From a virus (Duplodnaviria > Heunggongvirae > Uroviricota > Caudoviricetes): a stretch of DNA of 38,647 bases. Positions 10,145 through 30,476 of this stretch are shown here, piece after piece. The number at the start of each line of letters is the position of its first letter. The first letter of the stretch is position 1. The position numbers were made by a program, and so were the translations under genes. The notes below the pieces were generated by a model. It saw only the letters and a list, made by a program, of their open reading frames with translations, searched no databases and had not been told where the DNA came from. Where the stretch lies: IMG/VR virus record IMGVR_UViG_2711768064_000004. One strand, 5' to 3'.

Positions 10145-10711
10145 TCAGGGCGATTCATTGTTCTCATTCGCCGGAAATTTTCTATAAATGGTAGAAACGC
10201 CCACATCAAAAATCAGTGCAATACGCTGTCTTGATTCTCCGGCCTCGAGTAAACGCCCAATCTGTGCCCACTGTTCGGTGGTCAACTTAGGACGGCGTCC
10301 ACCTACTCTGCCTTTGGCACGAGCTGCAGCCAGCCCTGCCCTGGTACGTTCAACTATCAGTTCGCGTTCCATTTCAGCCAGGGCACCCATGACATGAAAA
10401 AAGAAACGGCCCATTGGGGTGCTGGTATCAATACTGTCAGTCAGGCTTCGGAAATTCACGCCTCGCTGACGCAACTCTTCTATCAGCGTAACAAGATGCC
10501 GCATACTGCGCCCCAACCTGTCCAGCTTCCAGACAACCAGCGTGTCTCCTGCCGATAGTGTCCTGAGCAGTTTTTTCAACCCTGGTCTGTCGGACTTAGT
10601 GCCACTGATTTTATCCTCAAAAATCCGCTCACATCCCGCGCAGTTCAGTGCATTACGTTGCAAATCGGTGTTCTGGTCATTTGTTGACACGCGTACATAG
10701 CCAATAAGCAT
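10145..10711 (-). CDS. site-specific DNA invertase (serine recombinase, Gin/Pin/Cin/Hin family)
   Basis: Start taken at MLIGYVRVSTNDQ (catalytic Ser motif); very high similarity to Mu Gin / e14 Pin across the length as recalled; C-terminal HTH. Confidence 0.92.
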   Translation of the reverse strand: MLIGYVRVSTNDQNTDLQRNALNCAGCERIFEDKISGTKSDRPGLKKLLRTLSAGDTLVVWKLDRLGRSMRHLVTLIEELRQRGVNFRSLTDSIDTSTPMGRFFFHVMGALAEMERELIVERTRAGLAAARAKGRVGGRRPKLTTEQWAQIGRLLEAGESRQRIALIFDVGVSTIYRKFPANENNESP

Positions 10712-10738
10712 GAGCATCCCCCTGAATAAAAACCGGGG

Positions 10739-11365
10739 ATGATGCCAGTTAGCCATTATCTCTGCATTTTCATAAACGTTGGTTTGGGAGAAGGCTCTGC
10801 ATTACCTGTTGGTGTCCCTGTTCCGTGGCCTTCAGCCACTCCGCCAACAGGCTGGCTGAAATGCAATGGTGCGGCTTTTTCTGCTGAAGAATACCCGGAA
10901 CTGGCAAAGGCTTACCCGACAAATAAATTGCCAGATTTACGTGGTGAGTTTATTCGTGGCTGGGATGACGGGCGAGGGATTGATGAGGGGCGCATACTTC
11001 TCAGTTGTCAGAGTTTTGCTTTCCAGGACCATGCGCACGCTCTGCCAACCGGAGTGGGTAATCCGTCAGACCAGATGGAAAGCGATATCTATGCGGTTTT
11101 CAACGATGTACCAGAAATACCCAGTGCGGCCCTGAGTCCATCGTCGTCAGGAACATCATGGGACGCAACCAGTAGGGCAGACAAGGTAATCCTTTATCGC
11201 AAGGACCTTTCACCAACAGGTAATAACAACGCAATAGCGACCGGATTACCACCATTCAGGACTTACAGGGCATCGACCTCAGACGGTGTTACTCATCCGT
11301 CCGTGTACGCATCTGAAACCCGTCCGCGCAACATTGCATTTAACTACATCGTGAGGGCTGCATAA
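10739..11365 (+). CDS. alternative (currently silent) tail-fibre C-terminal variable segment with tail-collar-type receptor-binding domain
   Basis: ORF begins inside the crossover site; real coding part is about 10795-11365, fused to constant H after inversion (junction GLGE shared). Contains a GWLKCNGAAFSAEEYPELAKAY...LPDLRGEFIRGWDDGRG collar-domain signature. Confidence 0.75.
   Translation: MMPVSHYLCIFINVGLGEGSALPVGVPVPWPSATPPTGWLKCNGAAFSAEEYPELAKAYPTNKLPDLRGEFIRGWDDGRGIDEGRILLSCQSFAFQDHAHALPTGVGNPSDQMESDIYAVFNDVPEIPSAALSPSSSGTSWDATSRADKVILYRKDLSPTGNNNAIATGLPPFRTYRASTSDGVTHPSVYASETRPRNIAFNYIVRAA
10767..10794. repeat. invertase crossover site (gix/pix-like), left
   Basis: TTTTCATAAACGTTGGTTTGGGAGAAGG; its reverse complement shares a 15-bp perfect core (CTTCTCCCAAACCAA) plus flanking matches with 12452-12479; resembles gix consensus. 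Confidence 0.75.
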
Positions 11366-11970
11366 TGGCGAAAGCAAAATTAAACAGTGCGTTTATTGCC
11401 ACCGTGGCAGGAGAAATCACTGTGTACAACTACCGGGGCGACACCCGCGAATACATATCCTCATCGGTTGAGTATCTGCCTGTGGGGGTGGGTATTCCTG
11501 CCAATTCCTGTACCGATGCGCCCGGCACACATAAGGCTGGTTATGCAATCTGCCGTTCTGCAGATTTTAACTCATGGGAATATGTGTCAGACCATCGCGG
11601 TGAAATTGTCTATGGCATCGAAACGGGGGAATCAAAAGAAATTACTGTGCCGGGGGATTACCCTGAAAATACGACCACTTTTGCCCCATTAACGCCATAC
11701 GATAAATGGGATGGTGAGAAATGGGTAACAGATACCGAGGCACAGCATAGCGCCGCAGTAGATGCAGCAGAAGTACAGCGCCAGTCTCTGATTGATGCTG
11801 CTATGGCTTCCATCAGTCTGATTCAGCTGAAATTGCAGGCCGGACGTAAACTGACGCAGGCAGAAACAACCCGCCTTAACGCTGTGCTGGATTACATTGA
11901 CGCGGTGACGGCAATAGATACCAGCACCGCGCCTGATATTATTTGGCCTGTATTCCCTGAGACTGATTAA
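11365..11970 (+). CDS. tail fibre assembly protein (lambda Tfa / Mu U family), partner of the silent fibre variant
   Basis: 201-aa ORF with the conserved Tfa C-terminus (TSTAPDIIWPVFPE) and N-terminal similarity to lambda Tfa as recalled; start overlaps stop of the upstream variable segment. Confidence 0.85.
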   Translation: MAKAKLNSAFIATVAGEITVYNYRGDTREYISSSVEYLPVGVGIPANSCTDAPGTHKAGYAICRSADFNSWEYVSDHRGEIVYGIETGESKEITVPGDYPENTTTFAPLTPYDKWDGEKWVTDTEAQHSAAVDAAEVQRQSLIDAAMASISLIQLKLQAGRKLTQAETTRLNAVLDYIDAVTAIDTSTAPDIIWPVFPETD

Positions 11971-15017: not shown

Positions 15018-15363
15018 TCTCTGCTCCTGTTGATACGGAAAGGGACACAGGCACACCGTTATTCCGCCGCCCGGTCAGCTCCACCACCATAGAACCGTCA
15101 AAGTTGCTGTTGATGGTGATGGAATCCAGCGTCAGCCGTGGCTCCCAGCGACTCAGCGCCACATACACTGCCGACATGACCTGCAGACGTAATGCCGGAT
15201 TTTGTGGCTGGTCTACCAGTGCCGACAGCAGGGAACCATATTCACGACGGGCAATACGGCTACCCTGCGGTGTCAGCAGAATGTCCCGCACCGACTGGCG
15301 CAGATGGTCAATATCAGTAATGGCTTTACCGCTGGTATTGTTCATCCCGCTATAAAGCGTCAT
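15004..15363 (-). CDS. W: baseplate protein W (gp25-like)
   Basis: 119-aa ORF resembling P2 gpW. Confidence 0.85.
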   Translation of the reverse strand: MTLYSGMNNTSGKAITDIDHLRQSVRDILLTPQGSRIARREYGSLLSALVDQPQNPALRLQVMSAVYVALSRWEPRLTLDSITINSNFDGSMVVELTGRRNNGVPVSLSVSTGAENGSD

Positions 15364-15938
15364 ACCGGGCCTCCGGTTGTGTCGCCGCCTTTCAGGACGC
15401 CAGTATGCTGATGTGCATCAACCACAATTCCGTTAGAACTCATTGCACCGCCGCCCTGGGTAACGCCACCATTGATCACCACTTCACTGTTAATGCGCGT
15501 GCGGTCAGCCTCCAGTACAAACTCACTGGTTTTCATGGTGATTTTGTCAGCGGCCTCAATGACCATTGATTTGATGCCCCTGACATACCAGCGCCCGGTG
15601 GCGGGTTCGTATTCAAACCAGCCACCGTCAGGATGTTCTGTCACGCAGGCGTCCGCCGACGTCGACGGTGGTGCGAACTGATTCGAATAGACAGCGGGCA
15701 GCGCAAAGGCGGTCTCCAGATTGCCGCCCAGACTCAGCAGCACCACCTGCTCACCTTCCGATGGTTTCCACCATGTGCGGGCATTACCCGCGCGCAGCGT
15801 CAGCCAGTTAATCCAGTTGGTTTCAAGGTCGCCCGTTTTCACCCGACAAAGCCAGTTTTCCCGGTCCACTTCGGTGACTACACCAGTGCGGATCAGGTTG
15901 GTGATAAGGCGCATGATTTCTGTAAGTTGTGCGTTCAT
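15360..15938 (-). CDS. V: baseplate spike/hub protein V
   Basis: Start at MNAQLTEIMRLI by alignment to P2 gpV N-terminus; Gly-rich C-terminus. Confidence 0.85.
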   Translation of the reverse strand: MNAQLTEIMRLITNLIRTGVVTEVDRENWLCRVKTGDLETNWINWLTLRAGNARTWWKPSEGEQVVLLSLGGNLETAFALPAVYSNQFAPPSTSADACVTEHPDGGWFEYEPATGRWYVRGIKSMVIEAADKITMKTSEFVLEADRTRINSEVVINGGVTQGGGAMSSNGIVVDAHQHTGVLKGGDTTGGPV

Positions 15939-15985
15939 GGCACACAACTTACAAAAATATTATTAGGAAAATAACTTAAGACAGT

Positions 15986-16003
15986 TGTGCCATTGCCGGC
16001 ACA
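15986..16003. promoter_or_regulatory. perfect dyad TGTGCC-N6-GGCACA (TGT-N12-ACA): candidate Ogr/B site of the V operon promoter, or terminator stem for the upstream cargo gene
   Basis: Read directly; centred only about 57 nt upstream of the V start, so assignment as late promoter element is tentative. Confidence 0.4.
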
Positions 16004-16016
16004 ACTAAAACAAGAT

Positions 16017-17225
16017 TTATTGAGTTAAATCAGTTACTATGGGGCCTATTTCAGTAAAATTATCAATCCATATAACATTAACACCAAAAGAGTTAGCATC
16101 AATTTCTTCAAATTTATGTACAGTATCTAATAAAGAACGGGCAACATTGTCTATATCGTCGACTAGCCCGTCATTCAAATCTTGACGTGAACCTTTTAGA
16201 ATTTTATTTATAACATCATCTTTTGAGTGTCGACATTTTATTAAGTAATGAGGTTTAGAATCATTACCCCTTAACTTTTTAGCAGCATCAAGCAGACGTC
16301 TTAAATTTGGATCAGTAAAGGAATGCCCTATAAACAAACAATTATTGTCTTTGAATTTATTCAACTGAACCATATTACTCCAGTGATATAAATCCATATA
16401 TTGCCGATGATAACTTTCATCCGATAAAACTAGGCTGTCATCACTATCAATCTTACCATTTAAGGGAAGATATCCATGAACATGATATATTGGCAACTCA
16501 TCTTTTTTTGCATGCTGCCCAGTTTTATATATAACCTTAAATTTAATACCAACATCTGCGTTTTGTAATGTTTGCTCTAGTATGTCGTCATAATTATATG
16601 TTATGACAGAATCTAACCCCGGAGCCTTCCCCGCAGAAATACATAATTTCTTTATCGCCTTAAGCGTTTGACTCTCGGTGCTATCATAAAATTGATATAG
16701 CACTTTCTGAATTTCTTTCTCAAGAGGAGTGTTAGCACTTTCAAAATGTAACTTTAAATATCTAGCCGCAATCAAAGCATTTGGCCCGAACACTTGATTA
16801 AATAATGTCGCAACAACTTGCTGATTTTCATTAGTATCTTGTAACGCTCTAGCAAGCAACCTCCTTAATAATTCATCCCATGTAGGTATTTTATAATCCA
16901 AAGAAATTCCAGCGCCTAATACAAGCACAAGATTTTCCTCTTTGAAATTACCCTTCAGGTTCTTTAATATAGTAGTTCTATTAGCTTGAACTGGTGCTTT
17001 CAACTTAGCATCAAGAGATTTAATTATATCTAAATATAAATTCTTACCGAGTACCTCATTAATATATTTAGAAATACTTCCAAAACTGTTATCTCCCCAT
17101 ACCACCGTACCAGAGGTGCTCTTAGAAAGGATTTCATCCGAGCCACTTCCATTCATATTTGCAGATGAATTATTTTCTGTTTCTGATTTTACTTGTTTAT
17201 TGATATCGTTATTTTTTTTCATCAA
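16017..17225 (-). CDS. SIR2-like (SIR2_2 / DHS-like NAD-binding) domain protein, standalone; candidate anti-phage NADase
   Basis: 402-aa ORF in an AT-rich insert between S and V; motifs LVLVLGAGIS...PTWDELL, VITYNYDD, PIYHVHGYLP, CLFIGHSFTDPNL match the SIR2-like family pattern as recalled; low-complexity N-terminus; GGAGAG SD 8 nt upstream of ATG. Confidence 0.75.
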   Translation of the reverse strand: MMKKNNDINKQVKSETENNSSANMNGSGSDEILSKSTSGTVVWGDNSFGSISKYINEVLGKNLYLDIIKSLDAKLKAPVQANRTTILKNLKGNFKEENLVLVLGAGISLDYKIPTWDELLRRLLARALQDTNENQQVVATLFNQVFGPNALIAARYLKLHFESANTPLEKEIQKVLYQFYDSTESQTLKAIKKLCISAGKAPGLDSVITYNYDDILEQTLQNADVGIKFKVIYKTGQHAKKDELPIYHVHGYLPLNGKIDSDDSLVLSDESYHRQYMDLYHWSNMVQLNKFKDNNCLFIGHSFTDPNLRRLLDAAKKLRGNDSKPHYLIKCRHSKDDVINKILKGSRQDLNDGLVDDIDNVARSLLDTVHKFEEIDANSFGVNVIWIDNFTEIGPIVTDLTQ

Positions 17226-17294
17226 TCAAACTCTCCATACTATTTATAACAGAGCCAATATGATGTTATAAAAACCCACAAAAAACAAGACATA

Positions 17295-17741
17295 TCAACT
17301 AGTTAGATAACGAAGTAAAATTATACTAATAGCATCGTTACTCTCAGTGCAGAAGCCTAATAGACGTCGCTCTGTATAACGTATTTCTGGCCCCTTATAT
17401 CTAACTCGATCACGCAGGCCATAATGGTGAACGCGGGCAATGCGCTGCACCTTATCTTCAAACTGCACACTGACAGAGTCGGCGTTGGCGGCAGTTTTCA
17501 GGTATTTTGTGGTGCGCAGCTTTGCAAACATCTGACGTTTGATGCACCCCTTTTTACTGCGTGCTGTTACCCGTCGAGGTTCATAGCTGCTGCCATCAGG
17601 GTTGCGCTGCATCCTGATATTCTGCTGCTGTGTCCGGCGCAGTTCCTGCGCCAGCTGGCGCATCATGCGGCTTCTTGCGGCTGGTTCCAGATTCGCCAGC
17701 AAAGCACTCAGCCAGTCGTCCACCTTCTGCAGTTCAGCCAC
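17295..17741 (-). CDS. S: tail completion protein S
   Basis: 148-aa ORF resembling P2 gpS; last ~20 codons are AT-rich and may derive from the cargo insertion. Confidence 0.85.
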   Translation of the reverse strand: MAELQKVDDWLSALLANLEPAARSRMMRQLAQELRRTQQQNIRMQRNPDGSSYEPRRVTARSKKGCIKRQMFAKLRTTKYLKTAANADSVSVQFEDKVQRIARVHHYGLRDRVRYKGPEIRYTERRLLGFCTESNDAISIILLRYLTS

Positions 17742-26102: not shown

Positions 26103-26798
26103 CTAAAACTTATCAATTTCCATACATGAAATAGCATCATTGAAAATCGAAAAATGCTCATCAGGAACCACTGCAGAAGCCCCACTGGTTAATTCAAAAC
26201 TAATCTTTGAACCAAGGTAAAACCCTCCAGCTTTTATTTTATCGAGTTTGAATTCACTATCCCCAACAAAAATCTTCAAATCATGCAAAGCATCGCCACT
26301 AGAATTCAATTCCAAACATGCTCTTGTTTTTTCAGTAACAGGAAGATTTGACACCTTCACTTTTGAAATGCCAAACACCTTTACGCCGAAATTTTCTCGA
26401 ATGACCCTCATGAAAGCTTTAAGATCTACGGTTAAATTTCCATAAGCAACATTTAATCCTTCGGCCTGAGATAAAAAATCGATAAAAGGTTTAACTGTTT
26501 TTGGAGGGTTGTAAAAAGTTAACAAACATATCTTATTGCTGAGGATTTGGATAGAAAAACTAATCTGATCAAATACAACCCTTTCGAATTCCAGCACCTC
26601 ACCGAATGGATCGGCAATTGGCTCTAAGACAACAGATTTTTTATTGAAAGTTGCAGTCATACCATTATGAATGGTTTCATACTTAGTAAAACCAGCACCA
26701 ATAGCATCAGAATAAGGCGTGTTTTTGATAAAATCAAAGACAGCCTCAGGGCTGGTCCTGATTTTTAATCTCATCCACTTCAATCTTAATTGTGACAT
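26103..26798 (-). CDS. hypothetical protein, third gene of cargo operon (no recognisable domain)
   Basis: Start at ATG 26798 with AAGGAG SD 6 nt upstream; 231 aa; AT-rich codon usage unlike flanking phage genes. Confidence 0.7.
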   Translation of the reverse strand: MSQLRLKWMRLKIRTSPEAVFDFIKNTPYSDAIGAGFTKYETIHNGMTATFNKKSVVLEPIADPFGEVLEFERVVFDQISFSIQILSNKICLLTFYNPPKTVKPFIDFLSQAEGLNVAYGNLTVDLKAFMRVIRENFGVKVFGISKVKVSNLPVTEKTRACLELNSSGDALHDLKIFVGDSEFKLDKIKAGGFYLGSKISFELTSGASAVVPDEHFSIFNDAISCMEIDKF

Positions 26799-26817
26799 AG
26801 CCACTCCTTATGATGTA

Positions 26818-27882
26818 TTAGCTGATTTCCATTATAATCGAATAAGCTCTATTTTCAATTAATTTATTAAATCGCTCAAGTTCTCTACCAGAGAGCTTTT
26901 GCGGTTTACTGAAATACTGTCCGTTTGCCTTATATTTTCTGACTCCCTTAACTAAATATGAGAAATTAGTACAATTGAGAGGATCACCAAACTGGGCCTC
27001 AAGCTCAAATATATCTGGATCTGCCAAGTTCTCCTTGACCTTCCATTTTATTTTCCAGATATAGAATCCTCTATCATAAAGATCGCTTAATTCATCAGAT
27101 TTTAGTACACCCTCCCCCTTAAGTGATGCCCTAGACACGTGCACTCCAGTTTCGGTGTTTCCATCTTCAGCCTCTATAGTTTCAGGCTTAGGGTGATATA
27201 CATAAGCATCCGTCACATCCAGTAACTCATAACCATCAAGTGTACGGATTAATTTATCGAAGAATAAAGTTCTAACATCAGCAGATGTATTGTGAGAGAG
27301 AGAAATTTCGTTTAATTTTAAATCAAGGTTACTATTATCCGCTTGCTCGTTCTGAATAGCGCTGATATGCCCCAGTAAAAGCCCCTCGTAATCTTCAAGA
27401 TTTTCATTATCTGGACGGCGGATACTGTAACCATTAGTAAGAGGCTCAATTTCAATTAACGCTTCTTTATTAATAGCCTGTTTGAAATCACTTTTGCCAT
27501 AATTAGTCGAAAGATACCTAATATTAATCAGAACTCGCGACCCATCCACGATTATTTTACAATAATCATCCTGCTCGGTAATTTCTTTCTTAAGTTTTTC
27601 TGCCGCGTCTATAATACCTTTCTTATCTATGTCAGTCTCAATTCTTACACATGTAATTTTTTCGGTCCTTGTCTGACCACCTAACAGGGTTGCAATTTTT
27701 TGATGCTCGTAATAATCATGAGTCATTCGAGAATAGTTTCTTGCTAATTCTTTTCGAGGAGTTTTTTTACATATGATCGTTCCTCTCTCTAAGAAAAGGT
27801 CTTGAATTTCATTTATGGTAATTTGCTTTTGGTTTAAAGCATCATACAAAGCTTTATCAGTTACGCTGTGAATATTTTTCAT
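26818..27882 (-). CDS. hypothetical protein, second gene of cargo operon (no recognisable domain)
   Basis: Start at ATG 27882 forming ATGA overlap with stop of the upstream gene; GGGAG SD; 354 aa. Confidence 0.7.
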   Translation of the reverse strand: MKNIHSVTDKALYDALNQKQITINEIQDLFLERGTIICKKTPRKELARNYSRMTHDYYEHQKIATLLGGQTRTEKITCVRIETDIDKKGIIDAAEKLKKEITEQDDYCKIIVDGSRVLINIRYLSTNYGKSDFKQAINKEALIEIEPLTNGYSIRRPDNENLEDYEGLLLGHISAIQNEQADNSNLDLKLNEISLSHNTSADVRTLFFDKLIRTLDGYELLDVTDAYVYHPKPETIEAEDGNTETGVHVSRASLKGEGVLKSDELSDLYDRGFYIWKIKWKVKENLADPDIFELEAQFGDPLNCTNFSYLVKGVRKYKANGQYFSKPQKLSGRELERFNKLIENRAYSIIMEIS

Positions 27883-28943
27883 TTCGGCTCCCAAGAAATA
27901 ACTTCTGCAGAAAAGAATTCTTTTACTGTAGACACAACTTTAACGTCTAAATCTTCAAGCCTCTTTTTAGCTTCTTCATCTAATCCATACTCATGTGCAT
28001 ATTTTTCAACTCCCCGTTGAAAATGTGAGAGAATCCTCTCATCTTTTTCTCGATATGCCAGCCTTATCCTAATTTTATTTATACCATCAAGAATTTGATA
28101 ATTTGACAAAATATCCAACAAATAAAAGAATTCATTGTCGCTATTACCTTTTTTGTTGTAATACACAACAAACCCTTCTGGATAAACTTCCTCCTCAATA
28201 CCTTTAGCTCTGTTAAATTTATAAACAGCACCATGTTTGATTATCATGAAAGGTGATGACAAGACTTCTATAGTAGCTGGAAGATATTTTTCAGTCACAG
28301 CAACCTTATGAAAAGTCAATTGAGGGTAATAGAATCCATAGTCTTCATCAGGAAACTCTTTCTTAGCAATCAAATCATTCATATCATTCGTTATTGCCAA
28401 CATATAATTAATCAGAAACGGATCGATTATATGAATTTGCTGACCTGCTGATAAAGGAATCTTTTCTAAGTTGACAGCCTTATCTCTTCTTCCTTTAGCG
28501 GGTTTAGGAGGATTAAAAAAATCATAAAAATCATGCTGCAACTGATTATCATGATTAAAAACAAATAATAAACCGCGAACTTCACAGTCAATTTGAGAAA
28601 AATTATATTTTTCTGACCACTCAGGACTATAGCGAGCACATTCAATAGTTTTTGCTAATGACTCCAATGCAGATTCTATTTTAGAAGCATTTATTGAGCC
28701 TGCTTTATAACTTTTTAAATCAGTATTTAAATAAATGACTTTGTTTAAATATGGGTCTTTATAACTAAATACAACATCTACAGGATGCGTGTGCTTCTGC
28801 TTCTTACCTTCAGGCTTATGTTTAGCCTCATCATCACAAAGGAAATCTCGGTCGCAGGGGCCATGCTGCTGCCACTTAAATCGACTCAGTAGATCCTCAG
28901 ATATGCGTTTCGCCAAATCTTCAATAGGGCCGTTCTCTGCCAT
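27879..28943 (-). CDS. hypothetical protein, first gene of cargo operon; weak PD-(D/E)xK-like pattern
   Basis: 354-aa ORF with AAGGAA SD; N-terminal region has E...HPVD-x17-DLK spacing compatible with, but not proving, a restriction-endonuclease-like fold. Confidence 0.7.
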   Translation of the reverse strand: MAENGPIEDLAKRISEDLLSRFKWQQHGPCDRDFLCDDEAKHKPEGKKQKHTHPVDVVFSYKDPYLNKVIYLNTDLKSYKAGSINASKIESALESLAKTIECARYSPEWSEKYNFSQIDCEVRGLLFVFNHDNQLQHDFYDFFNPPKPAKGRRDKAVNLEKIPLSAGQQIHIIDPFLINYMLAITNDMNDLIAKKEFPDEDYGFYYPQLTFHKVAVTEKYLPATIEVLSSPFMIIKHGAVYKFNRAKGIEEEVYPEGFVVYYNKKGNSDNEFFYLLDILSNYQILDGINKIRIRLAYREKDERILSHFQRGVEKYAHEYGLDEEAKKRLEDLDVKVVSTVKEFFSAEVISWEPK

Positions 28944-29334: not shown

Positions 29335-29916
29335 ATGAAAGTCAACATAAAACAGATTGTTGGAAATTGGGAATTAGGTCTTGCGATGGATAAACACAGC
29401 ATCCGCAGCATTCCCATTGGTTACGATGAGTGGGGACATATGCGGTTTGAGACGGAGCGTACTGAGGTAGGCGAATCTCTTTTCCAGCTTAAATACCGTG
29501 ACGATTGGTCACAAGTTAAGCCTTTAGCCCAATGCCTAGCAGAGCATGCCTTTCCTCATTTCAGCAATGTCGGGTTTATCGTTCCAATGGCTGCATCTAA
29601 TCAGCGTGCACGCCAGCCAGTGACCGAAATAGCTCAGGAACTAGCCAAACTAGTTGGCAAACCATGCTTCGATGACCTCTTGTTGAAAGCCCCCGGCGGG
29701 GCATCGCTAAAGAACCTGAATACAAAAGAAGAGAAAATCACGGCGCTGGGTAATTCGTTCTCTGTTAATGACAGTATTGAGAATAATGGCAACTGGAATG
29801 TCCTTATCATTGACGACCTCTACCATACAGGCGCATCTATGGAGGCTGCTTGTGCTGTGCTAAACGATTATACTAAGGTTAGAAGCATTTATGTTGCAGC
29901 TTTGACTTGGAGATAG
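29335..29916 (+). CDS. phosphoribosyltransferase (PRTase)-like domain protein
   Basis: 193 aa; C-terminal VLIIDDLYHTGASMEAA matches the type I PRTase PRPP-binding signature; no zinc-finger cysteines (not ComF-like). Confidence 0.75.
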   Translation: MKVNIKQIVGNWELGLAMDKHSIRSIPIGYDEWGHMRFETERTEVGESLFQLKYRDDWSQVKPLAQCLAEHAFPHFSNVGFIVPMAASNQRARQPVTEIAQELAKLVGKPCFDDLLLKAPGGASLKNLNTKEEKITALGNSFSVNDSIENNGNWNVLIIDDLYHTGASMEAACAVLNDYTKVRSIYVAALTWR

Positions 29917-29918
29917 TG

Positions 29919-30476
29919 ATGACTACGGTATTTGTTGCTGGTTCAATAACCATCAAAAACCTTGACACACTCATCGTGGATCGTCTGAAAAAAATTGTTA
30001 ACTCGCGTTTTCGTATTGTAGTTGGTGATGCCAATGGTGTTGATTCATCTGTTCAACGCGTATTGCTAGAACTTGGATGTGAAAAAGCCACAGTATTCAG
30101 TAGCTCAGAAAAACCGCGCAATAATCTTGGCTCATGGCCTGTACATGTAGTAAGTACTAGCCATGCAGCCGGCACTCGCGCGTTTTTCACTGCGAAAGAT
30201 CTCAAAATGGCAGAAGAAGCCGATTATGGATTAATGGTTTGGGATACGAAGAGCACGGGTACTCTGAGTAACGTGATTGAGCTTCTTAAACGTAAAAAAT
30301 ACTCTGTCGTTTTTGTTAATAAATACAAAAAGTTCTTTATTATCAAATCTCCAGAGCACCTTGACGCTTTGATTAACTGCATGTCACCAGCCTCTTTGGA
30401 AAAAGCTGATGAAAAGATCAGATTGCGCGAAAAAATCAACCAACTAAAAAACGAGCAAATCCAGATGTTTATGTGA
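29919..30476 (+). CDS. SLOG-superfamily (DprA/Smf- or LOG-like Rossmann) domain protein
   Basis: Start at ATG 29919, 2 nt after the PRTase stop, GGAGA SD; motif VFVAGS...RIVVGDANGVDSSVQRVLLELG resembles the DprA/Smf Gly-rich nucleotide-binding loop. Family assignment from motif only. Confidence 0.6.
   Translation: MTTVFVAGSITIKNLDTLIVDRLKKIVNSRFRIVVGDANGVDSSVQRVLLELGCEKATVFSSSEKPRNNLGSWPVHVVSTSHAAGTRAFFTAKDLKMAEEADYGLMVWDTKSTGTLSNVIELLKRKKYSVVFVNKYKKFFIIKSPEHLDALINCMSPASLEKADEKIRLREKINQLKNEQIQMFM

Follow-up and report, generated by a model that had tools for sequence, protein, structure and literature searches.

A putative stand-alone SIR2 NADase gene in the S-V slot of a P2/186-like prophage

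The SIR2 gene and its surroundings

We identified a gene for a SIR2-family protein between the tail genes S and V of a P2/186-like prophage (IMG/VR record IMGVR_UViG_2711768064_000004; the window, i.e., the whole stretch of DNA that was analyzed, is 38,647 nucleotides long). The features at the locus are:

17295..17741, minus strand: gpS tail-completion gene, the upstream flank (Pfam Phage_tail_S, E=4e-38)
17295..17411, minus strand: AT-rich, exchanged 3' end of S (codons 111-148 and stop), part of the swapped module
17226..17294, minus strand: spacer from S to the SIR2 gene, with a Shine-Dalgarno sequence (GGAGAG) at 17231-17236
16017..17225, minus strand: SIR2 gene, 402 aa from TTG 17225 or 401 aa from ATG 17222
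16017-16019, minus strand: stop codon (TAA) of the SIR2 gene
15986..16003, no strand assigned: TGT-N12-ACA dyad, 13 nt past the SIR2 stop and 46-47 nt before the V ATG
15360..15938, minus strand: gpV baseplate spike gene, the downstream flank (Pfam Phage_base_V and Apex; conserved MN... start)

The original prediction, made from the sequence alone, was of a SIR2-like ORF of 402 aa in an AT-rich insert between S and V. The ORF matches Pfam SIR2_2 (PF13289) with 77.5 bits (E=1.4e-21), which is far above the cut-off of 24.5, and thus the SIR2 assignment is not due to chance. The ATG at 17222 is the codon directly after the TTG and yields the 401-aa form. This is the form of the near-identical copies in RefSeq, where they are annotated as "SIR2 family protein", and the start MKK... 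is common to the homologs in a 39-homolog alignment. A search of GenBank phages for sequences near-identical to the SIR2 gene returned zero matches; at this level of identity the gene is so far known from prophages and metagenomes only.

The predicted position also proved correct, as both gpS and gpV were confirmed by Pfam, as were the R and W genes around them. The SIR2 gene is separated from S by 69 nt and from V by 78 nt. The insert is a 33% GC island within a 56% GC P2-like prophage: GC is 0.29-0.385 over ~15950-17400 (0.33 in the SIR2 gene itself), compared with ~0.56 in the flanks, and GC3 is 0.25 in the SIR2 gene vs 0.62-0.63 in S and V. The SIR2 gene is a foreign, horizontally acquired accessory gene located in the orf30 (S-V) variable slot. 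As had been anticipated, the P2 counterpart is a small ORF, the 261-bp orf30 (PMC6823313). P2-like phages have three classic AT-rich regions that were acquired by horizontal transfer, and the orf30 position is among them (PMC3091744). Phages 500465-1 and Fels-2 have an empty slot, with a 68-nt spacer, and vB_EcoM-813R9 carries other cargo there, made up of two genes. Hotspots of P2 abound in defense genes (PMC9122126, PMC9519451, PMC13586616). The hotspot surveys consulted center on the A-Q and Z/fun loci, and one of them refers to hotspots "within the tail genes" but gives no details. We looked for att-like or direct repeats at the borders of the insert and found short AT-rich matches at chance level only, so we recognize no mobile-cassette borders in the prophage.

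The AT-rich tract was said to extend into the last ~20 codons of S, which the insertion was thought to have rewritten. The tract does enter S, and the amino acid changes are limited to the last ~20 residues. At the nucleotide level, however, ~38 codons are affected, because both identity and GC3 fall from about codon 111: identity to an empty-site relative is ~0.9 before codon 111, 0.67 at that codon and 0.27-0.52 over codons 131-148, and GC3 is 0.21 over codons 110-148. Every variant compared retains a 148-aa S with the pattern ...I..L..[WY]L.., which rules out destruction of the S C-terminus by the insertion. Rather than being rewritten, the S C-terminus was exchanged for an AT-rich homologous version of the same length and pattern, which is also seen with other cargo at the slot.

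In P2, the late operon upstream of this slot ends with S. The TGT-N12-ACA dyad matches the Ogr/B-type late-promoter activator site and presumably functions as one, given what is established for P2 and 186. It lies directly after the S stop in the empty-site phages 500465-1 and Fels-2, and in the other cargo variants, with spacing conserved to within 1 nt. The cargo sits between the S stop and this dyad of the V late promoter, and therefore interrupts neither late operon. Any promoter of its own would have to be confined to the 17226..17294 spacer or the 3' end of S. A sigma-70-like site (CTGAGA-16-TATAAT) occurs at 17347-17320, but the five sigma-70-like sites found over 15850-17450 are not above chance (7.4 expected). 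No terminator was found in the same interval, including after S, so read-through from the upstream late operon is possible.

Catalytic core and N-terminal tail

Residues 85-401 are predicted, from alignments and a structure model, to form a complete ThsA/KomC-type SIR2 domain in which the NAD-binding motif and the putative catalytic Asn/His pair are intact. The parts of the protein, all on the minus strand, are:

16971..17222: N-terminal tail, aa 1-84, S/N/K-rich and hypervariable, a proposed input or regulatory segment
16020..16970: predicted SIR2 catalytic domain, aa 85-401, ThsA/KomC type, reaching the C-terminus
16902..16916: GAGIS, aa 103-107, Rossmann NAD-binding glycine motif
16584..16601: TYNYDD, aa 208-213, with Asn210 at 16593-16595
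16473..16484: HVHG, aa 247-250, with His249 at 16476-16478
16302..16334: FIGHSFTDPNL, aa 297-307, conserved SIR2_2 motif (S301, D304, P305 and N306 are invariant columns)

All four motifs on which the prediction was based (GAGIS, TYNYDD, H-V-HG and FIGHSFxDxNL) were located, and are invariant or nearly invariant in 39 homologs. GAG (G103, A104, G105), N210, D212/213, H249 and G250 are invariant throughout. The catalytic residues are present on alignment: in a HMMER alignment to 6LHX, Asn210 is the counterpart of ThsA Asn112 (TTNYD, residues 110-114) and His249 is the counterpart of ThsA His152 (...YKMHG). His249 would also correspond to the class of His mutated in the PDB entries KomC(H146N) and DSR2(H171A), a match made via fold homology and not residue by residue. 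The FIGHSFTDPNL motif aligns with the "G.S..D.N" segment of ThsA and KomC.

Profile matches to PDB entries were obtained for ThsA (4e-10) and KomC (1e-9), and the predicted structure matched ThsA, DSR2 and KomC with a Foldseek probability of 1.0, in agreement with the SIR2 fold that had been proposed. The fold ranking places the protein far nearer to immune SIR2 NADases than to deacylases and canonical sirtuins. There are three Cys (positions 194, 295 and 330) and no CxxC, and thus the Zn module of canonical sirtuin deacylases is absent. Based on the fold ranking, we infer that the protein falls in the antiphage SIR2 clade. Documented antiphage bacterial SIR2 proteins form one clade, and their neighborhoods are 12-fold enriched in defense systems (bioRxiv 10.1101/2024.09.18.613514). 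No SLOG, Zn-ribbon or other sensor domain was recognized in the protein.

The N-terminal ~90 aa had been described as low-complexity. Residues 1-84 are S/N/K-rich and atypical, and pLDDT is <50 for aa 1-64 and 68-78, but sequence entropy is only slightly reduced, and the segment is better described as a hypervariable tail. The structure model suggests that it is probably disordered. Among homologs, identity is 14-32% in the tail, compared with 77-87% in the core. The corresponding dN values are 0.79 and 0.17; dS is saturated in the pair available, so dN/dS of the tail is not interpretable. The reading frame through the divergent tail stays open in all 39 homologs. The divergence could reflect a lack of constraint instead of an arms race. 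Among the 150 representatives listed, the SIR2 core ends at or near the protein C-terminus and the N-terminal extensions vary in length. Relatives from the same SIR2 clade bear fused LRR-Roc-COR, Mrr_N or TIR (TIR_2) domains, proposed input modules, at the position of the tail.

Distribution and relation to known systems

Matches to the SIR2 core at E<=1e-30 fall into 483 clusters (50% identity). Bacteria from many phyla are represented, as is at least one archaeal MAG. A length of ~350-420 aa and the architecture are retained in hundreds of 50%-identity clusters, across many phyla. The original prediction that there is no adjacent sensor or partner gene is upheld by the gpS and gpV neighbors, and by an all-vs-all comparison of ORFs within 3 kb at 80 diverse loci, which revealed no shared neighbor (maximum 4/80). 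In some distant subclades an extra gene is tightly linked to the SIR2 homolog. A Vibrio parahaemolyticus homolog (P0032) is flanked on both sides by attC-like repeats in two different arrays, and is thus a single-gene integron cassette. SIR2 homologs are also common in chromosomes and integrons without nearby phage genes.

It had been suggested that the same gene be sought at the S-V position of other P2-like prophages. The order R-S-[SIR2]-V-W occurs in all eight IMG/VR relatives (66-100% identity) and in the P0012 and LR-50 copies, in diverged prophages. The gene is intact in decayed prophages (E. coli LR-45 and many Enterobacter), and was also identified in prophage remnants without a Q-A hotspot. 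The Q-A hotspot of the window harbors other defense genes. A partner located there was rejected, as E. coli PS10-3 combines the same SIR2 gene with different Q-A cargo. No match to TIR, HerA, SMC, deaminase or HAM1 was found among the scanned accessory ORFs of the window, and a ThsB-like TIR gene is absent from the PGAP annotation of near-identical prophages. The SIR2 gene moves and persists alone, without a partner gene. It is rare in E. coli: among 5426 complete genomes there are four near-identical copies and four at 75% nucleotide identity. One E. coli copy is interrupted by an IS5 element.

The best PADLOC match is to LmuA (8e-22), and the LmuA, ThsA and Dsr1 matches are confined to the SIR2 portions. 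Thoeris ThsA (PDB 6LHX, 7UXT, 8BTO) has a C-terminal SLOG/STALD domain, which is missing from the protein described here (only profile positions 3-274 of 478 are matched) and from eight of its relatives. ThsA also lacks an N-terminal tail such as the 84-aa one found here, and in type I Thoeris the ThsB TIR gene is adjacent, whereas here the neighbors are gpS and gpV. Kongming KomC (PDB 8ZSF, 9V0G) is 264 aa long and similarly without the tail. It acts with KomA (a deaminase) and KomB (HAM1-like) and is turned on by dITP (PMC13434031). Neither KomA nor KomB flanks the SIR2 ORF in the window; neighbors at the homolog loci were compared without domain annotation. Lamassu encodes an SMC-like LmuB, and also LmuC, alongside LmuA. 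No such gene is adjacent here, and the LmuA match covers positions 3-236 of 433. SIR2-HerA systems (Nezha / Gao_Her) have an adjacent HerA ATPase that is lacking here, and the PADLOC "SIR2" models match weakly, at E=2.5e-6 or worse.

DSR1 and DSR2 are single-gene SIR2 NADase defenses whose SIR2 domains superpose on this one (Foldseek E ~1e-11 to 1e-12). However, they are ~1000-1250 aa long, with an N-terminal SIR2 domain and a large C-terminal sensor, unlike the 401-aa protein with a C-terminal SIR2 domain and 84 additional aa identified here; the score for NCBIfam Dsr1 is 32.1 bits (cut-off 1400). Lactococcal AbiH provides a precedent: it is a validated single-gene Abi protein of ~350 aa, predicted to have a sirtuin-like fold, and its trigger is unknown (PMC13064643). 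What it shares with the protein described here is only the idea of a single SIR2-like Abi gene borne by a mobile element. Pfam AbiH scores 17.9 bits (cut-off 30.9), and AbiH, which comes from a Gram-positive host, represents a separate subfamily. Human FAM118B/SIRal (PDB 9R0P) is eukaryotic, shows weak NAD processing alone, requires its paralog FAM118A, and is more remote from this protein than ThsA or KomC. The "Sir2 homologue" of Vassallo et al. is PD-T7-2A, half of a two-gene SIR2+ATPase system, and is unrelated. We found no named stand-alone SIR2 system, no name for the present family, and no SIR2 gene at the P2 S-V site, in the literature searched. Relative to P2 orf30, Z/fun and tin-old, the SIR2 cargo shares the orf30 position and is unrelated to orf30. 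By analogy with tin, old and fun, its role is likely exclusion of other phages.

Proposed function and alternatives

SIR2 NADases are established anti-phage effectors. To our knowledge, all those characterized are tied to a recognizable sensor, either as a fused domain or as a partner protein. Fused sensors are SLOG, STAND and the large C-terminal sensor of DSR2; partners are ThsB, HerA, pAgo, KomA/B and LmuB/C. In the family described here, a ThsA-type SIR2 domain with a short, fast-evolving tail stands alone and moves as one gene, which is found in slots of prophages and in integron cassettes.

We consider it probable that the SIR2 gene encodes a single-gene abortive-infection NADase, an autonomous, horizontally acquired and minimal SIR2 immune enzyme that consists of a single chain. 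Lysogens would contain the protein at a low level and keep it inactive. Infection by another phage may be detected directly, by the N-terminal tail, a variable helical segment at ~aa 338-365, or both. Detection would trigger self-assembly, probably into filaments, if the behavior of structural relatives (ThsA, KomBC, Avs5 and FAM118B) can be extrapolated. Assembly would activate NAD+ hydrolysis, and the infected cell would lose NAD+ and no longer support phage growth, i.e., undergo abortive infection. The prophage would be protected because the lysogen population is shielded. Such protection by the gene alone would raise the question of how a bare SIR2 domain senses infection and otherwise stays silent, would provide a compact, E. 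coli-native system for studying sensing, and would make the S-V (orf30) slot another P2 hotspot in which to look for defense genes.

The original prediction had allowed for either a single-gene factor or an orphan effector. The 483 clusters, the absence of a shared neighbor, the lone cassette and the kept slot favor the former over the latter. An effector that is inert by itself and needs a partner elsewhere (supplied by the host, by the Q-A hotspot or some other locus of a prophage, or by a TIR that makes a signal) would fit the lack of an obvious sensor domain, the other defense genes in the Q-A hotspot of the window, and the fact that the nearest characterized SIR2s are all partnered: ThsA-ThsB, KomC-KomA/B, LmuA-LmuB/C and SIR2-HerA (PMC13434031). 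We regard it as unlikely given that the gene occurs with different Q-A cargo and in remnants lacking that hotspot, that a homolog is a lone integron cassette, and that neighbors are unrelated across phyla. Furthermore, SLOG, the receiver of the Thoeris signal, is missing, and the scanned accessory ORFs contain no TIR, HerA, SMC, deaminase or HAM1 match. If the gene is nevertheless not protective alone, trans-acting partners for SIR2 effectors would be implied. A non-defense NAD-dependent enzyme, i.e., a protein deacylase or an ADP-ribosyltransferase that would serve lysogenic conversion or tune host physiology to the benefit of the phage, is rather improbable. The protein has only three Cys and no CxxC Zn module, its fold is far nearer to that of immune SIR2 NADases than to deacylases, antiphage SIR2s cluster apart from non-immune sirtuins (bioRxiv 10.1101/2024.09.18.613514), and prophage hotspots and integron cassettes are habitats typical of defense genes.

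The resemblance to ThsA without SLOG, the IS element in one E. coli copy and the rarity of the gene in E. coli could point to a passive passenger that is left over from a larger SIR2 system, as a truncated ThsA or DSR, and is decaying or inert. This is very improbable, as the length and architecture are conserved in the hundreds of clusters noted above, the catalytic residues are invariant, dN of the core is low (0.17) while dS is saturated, the frame remains open throughout the divergent tail, and the gene is intact amid decaying phage genes. We give hardly any credence to an offensive or anti-defense role for the phage, in which a late or virion-delivered NADase (with the tail as a packaging signal) or a destroyer of NAD-derived immune signals would be encoded. 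The location among late tail genes, possible read-through from the upstream late operon and a tail without an assigned function are compatible with such a role. Nevertheless, the literature searched yielded no precedent, homologs are common in chromosomes and integrons without phage genes nearby, and the gene is kept in prophage remnants that are not inducible.

Within the preferred reading of a single-gene abortive-infection NADase, a more specific and quite tentative version, which we think doubtful, is that the tail (aa 1-84) is itself the phage sensor. It would serve as a bait or short linear motif that is bound or modified by a phage protein, freeing a filament-forming SIR2 NADase. If so, no smaller self-contained SIR2 immune receptor would be known, its specificity could be reprogrammed by tail swap, and it would be the closest bacterial analog of the sensor-less human FAM118B/SIRal sirtuins.

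The SIR2 gene and its protein

The SIR2 gene lies in a sharp-edged island with a GC content of 0.29-0.385 over ~15950-17400 (0.33 for the gene itself), versus ~0.56 on either side. Its GC3 is 0.25, versus 0.62-0.63 for tail genes S and V. Both neighbors were identified using Pfam, as were gpR and gpW among the flanking genes.

15360-15938, gpV (Pfam)
16017..17225, minus strand, SIR2 ORF of the ORF list, 402 aa, start TTG
17295-17741, gpS (Pfam)

This is the arrangement of the original prediction, a 402-aa ORF in an AT-rich insert between S and V. The ATG at 17222, the codon after the TTG, gives a 401-aa product labeled 'SIR2 family protein' by RefSeq in near-identical E. coli prophages. A chance ORF is ruled out, because the frame stays open for 1.2 kb in DNA of 33% GC and scores 77.5 bits against Pfam SIR2_2 (cut-off 24.5). 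The four SIR2-like motifs predicted earlier were all found, on invariant or nearly invariant columns of a 39-homologue alignment. The spacers are only 69 nt (SIR2-S) and 78 nt (SIR2-V), and a second gene cannot fit beside the SIR2 gene.

The top PADLOC matches of the protein are the SIR2 portions of LmuA, ThsA, PDC-S25 and Dsr1. Alignment to the ThsA profile is confined to positions 3-274 of 478, thus the SLOG half of ThsA is absent from the SIR2 protein. Solved structures found with the family profile are ThsA (4e-10), KomC (1e-9), SeThsA and human FAM118B (1e-4), and in this comparison the ThsA counterparts of Asn210 and His249 are Asn112 and His152. With three cysteines, none of them in a CxxC pair, the protein lacks the Zn module of canonical sirtuins. 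The AlphaFold2 model (mean pLDDT 71.8, pTM 0.73) has good confidence over most of residues ~81-401 and pLDDT <50 at 1-64, 68-78 and 267-278. Based on the sequence matches, this model and the missing Zn module, we conclude that residues 85-401 are a single immune-type SIR2 domain that reaches the C-terminus, after an 84-residue tail. Judged by sequence, this ThsA-type domain appears complete and is predicted to be catalytically intact.

The S-V slot and its junctions

The slot is the orf30 position, which the literature counts among the three regions that P2-like phages have gained by horizontal transfer (PMC3091744, PMC6823313). Recent defense-hotspot surveys focus on the A-Q and Z/fun loci and mention tail-gene hotspots just in passing. 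Among close relatives, Escherichia phage 500465-1 and Fels-2 have no cargo in the slot, and their S-V spacer is 68 nt. In vB_EcoM-813R9 (L093 2973-5076), the slot is occupied by two other genes on the opposite strand (a hypothetical protein and a 'putative enzyme with ATPase activity'). That cargo, which could be another defense system, brings an AT-rich S C-terminus of its own.

Where the slot is empty, a TGT-N12-ACA dyad lies within ~4 nt downstream of the S stop, and 45 nt separate it from the V ATG. The window has the dyad at 15986-16003, 13 nt past the SIR2 stop, with spacing to the V ATG equal within 1 nt. We take this dyad to be the Ogr/B activator site of late promoters in P2 and 186. 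In these phages, S closes one late operon and V opens the next. On this reading, the cargo would occupy the gap between two transcription units and disturb neither. A promoter scan at the SIR2 locus did not exceed chance, and a terminator search there had no hits. Around the V start codon (15916-15958) is a 16-nt inverted repeat, 94% complementary (ATTTTTGTAAGTTGTG...CACAACTTACAGAAAT), which may influence how V is translated or how stable its mRNA is. It is missing in the empty-site phages, and the LR-50 variant, from an enterobacterial prophage, has a different hairpin there.

The upstream junction of the module falls within the S gene. Compared with the empty-site S, nucleotide identity is 0.87-1.0 over codons 1-110, 0.67 over codons 111-130 and 0.27-0.52 over codons 131-148, and GC3 within S drops from 0.63 to 0.21 past the junction. 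It had been proposed that the AT-rich tract reaches into S and that the insertion rewrote the S C-terminus. The first part holds, as identity and GC3 fall from codon 111, but the second does not. Collateral insertion damage is ruled out because all gpS variants have a length of 148 aa and their replaced C-termini share a ...I..L..[WY]L.. pattern. These features point to a homologous alternative C-terminus that would have been acquired along with the module through recombination in the S gene.

Autonomy, input position and proposed role

We compared 80 diverse family loci (Bacteroidota, Bacillota, Pseudomonadota, Thermodesulfobacteriota and one archaeal MAG). When all ORFs within 3 kb were compared with one another, no conserved neighbor emerged, and the largest neighbor family occurs in 4/80 loci. 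The prediction that no sensor or partner adjoins the gene is borne out by this result and by the short gaps. Some distant subclades have a tightly linked extra gene, which may be a lineage-restricted partner: a ~170-230-aa same-strand gene close behind the SIR2 gene in Clostridia (L077, L085, L087, L088), and one of 321 aa in Halarcobacter (L114 7150-8115).

One and the same protein (P0032) occurs in two distinct gene arrays of V. parahaemolyticus. Its gene has attC-like Vibrio repeats on both sides and a common 5' leader in both arrays, and is therefore a single-gene integron cassette. The cassette homologue (L003 and L006, 5800-7360) is 414 aa and 54% identical; one of the two arrays adjoins phage-like genes (Bro-N, RecA-dependent nuclease).

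The S-V position recurs in other P2-like genomes. The eight IMG/VR relatives that are 66-100% identical all have the order R-S-[SIR2]-V-W, with an AT-rich SIR2 gene (GC 0.33-0.375) and core genes that have also diverged (V is 72-100% identical). The same order occurs in an E. coli homologue at 75% nt identity and in five prophages with differing tail fibers that encode P0012. E. coli PS10-3 has the SIR2 gene at 99.6% nt identity, with PIN-domain cargo in the portal-replication hotspot versus the 3HP system of the window. The gene is intact in a decayed prophage of E. coli LR-45, and in many Enterobacter contigs the survivors next to ybjL are S, intact SIR2, a V fragment and another cargo gene. 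Most structural genes are gone and S is retained next to ybjL in L116-L121 (Enterobacter) and in L001 and L107 (E. coli); L116-L121 also retain an FRG-domain gene. Only 8/5426 complete E. coli genomes have the gene, and in strain EC05 an IS5/ISKpn26 insertion splits it. Five independent lines (the 80 loci, integron cassette, fixed slot, PS10-3 cargo and remnants) argue that the SIR2 gene is a self-contained unit.

Among enterobacterial prophage-borne homologues, identity is 14-32% over residues 1-84 and 77-87% in the core. Between the window and LR-50 copies, dN is 0.79 in the tail and 0.17 in the core (dS is saturated). The open frame and MKK start are retained despite this divergence, thus the tail is translated. 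A second variable stretch occurs around residues 338-365. When 1.84 billion representative proteins were searched exhaustively with HMMER, 483 clusters matched at E<=1e-30 and 1448 did so at E<=1e-10. The 150 listed representatives all end with the SIR2 core or shortly after it, and their N-terminal extensions are ~30-90 aa, ~130-200 aa or much longer. Long relatives (P0123, P0206, P0266, P0172) carry N-terminal LRR-Roc-COR (923 and 1011 aa), Mrr_N (581 aa) or TIR_2 (442 aa) domains and share only the SIR2 part with ThsA. Thus, the N-terminus is the site of input-module exchange in this clade. The TIR-SIR2 fusion looks like a Thoeris-like pair in one chain, without the SLOG domain. At this position the window protein has a short, fast-evolving, probably disordered segment, the divergence of which may reflect mere lack of constraint.

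We moderately favor a prophage-encoded single-gene defense (abortive-infection) NADase. The protein would be held inactive in the lysogen and would sense an infecting phage directly, via the tail, the variable helical segment or both. This would lead to self-assembly, which would turn on NAD+ hydrolysis and starve phage replication. The self-assembly step is proposed by analogy with the closest structural relatives (ThsA with gcADPR, KomC/KomBC, Avs5, FAM118B), which were solved as helical or filamentous assemblies. A lone sirtuin-like gene, AbiH, can confer abortive infection (PMC13064643). We give the tail as sensor much less credence than the NADase role.

ThsA, KomC and LmuA habitually work with partners, and one encoded elsewhere might be supposed here; we consider this unlikely given the five lines arguing for a self-contained unit. 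An NAD-dependent enzyme with a non-defense role is slightly less probable again, as the Zn module is missing and the fold ranking speaks against it. Conservation across hundreds of clusters makes an inert remnant improbable, and an offensive or virion-delivered factor is more improbable still, given that homologues reside in chromosomes, integrons and prophage remnants.

SIR2 effectors, P2 cargo hotspots and the orf30 slot are already known, and the gene has the database label 'SIR2 family protein'. To a specialist, finding SIR2 in a P2 hotspot will be no surprise. We did not find a literature description of a ThsA-type SIR2 protein with only a short hypervariable tail that is autonomous, widespread and in a fixed Peduoviridae slot. 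How a bare SIR2 protein senses infection is nonetheless a genuine question, and is directly testable in E. coli.

Other loci in the window

We identified a second AT-rich island (GC ~0.32-0.38) between the portal and replication genes. It is an Rst_3HP system, in a classic P2 defense hotspot.

26103-28943, minus strand, ORFs of 233, 358 and 354 aa, PADLOC Hp3, Hp2 and Hp1 (E=4e-10, 7e-40 and 1e-66)

A 193-aa ORF in 29335-30476 (plus strand) resembles ShosT/PsyrT phosphoribosyltransferase toxins (E=1e-8, 1.5e-7), and the overlapping 189-aa ORF that comes after it has no Pfam or PADLOC matches. These may be a variant PRTase toxin-antitoxin-type defense pair without the usual DprA-like partner. 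A Hin/Cin-type resolvase (10145-10756, minus strand) adjoins an opposite-strand tail-collar fiber C-terminus and a tail-fiber assembly gene (10739-11970), and the region 10145-11970 looks like an invertible host-range switch.
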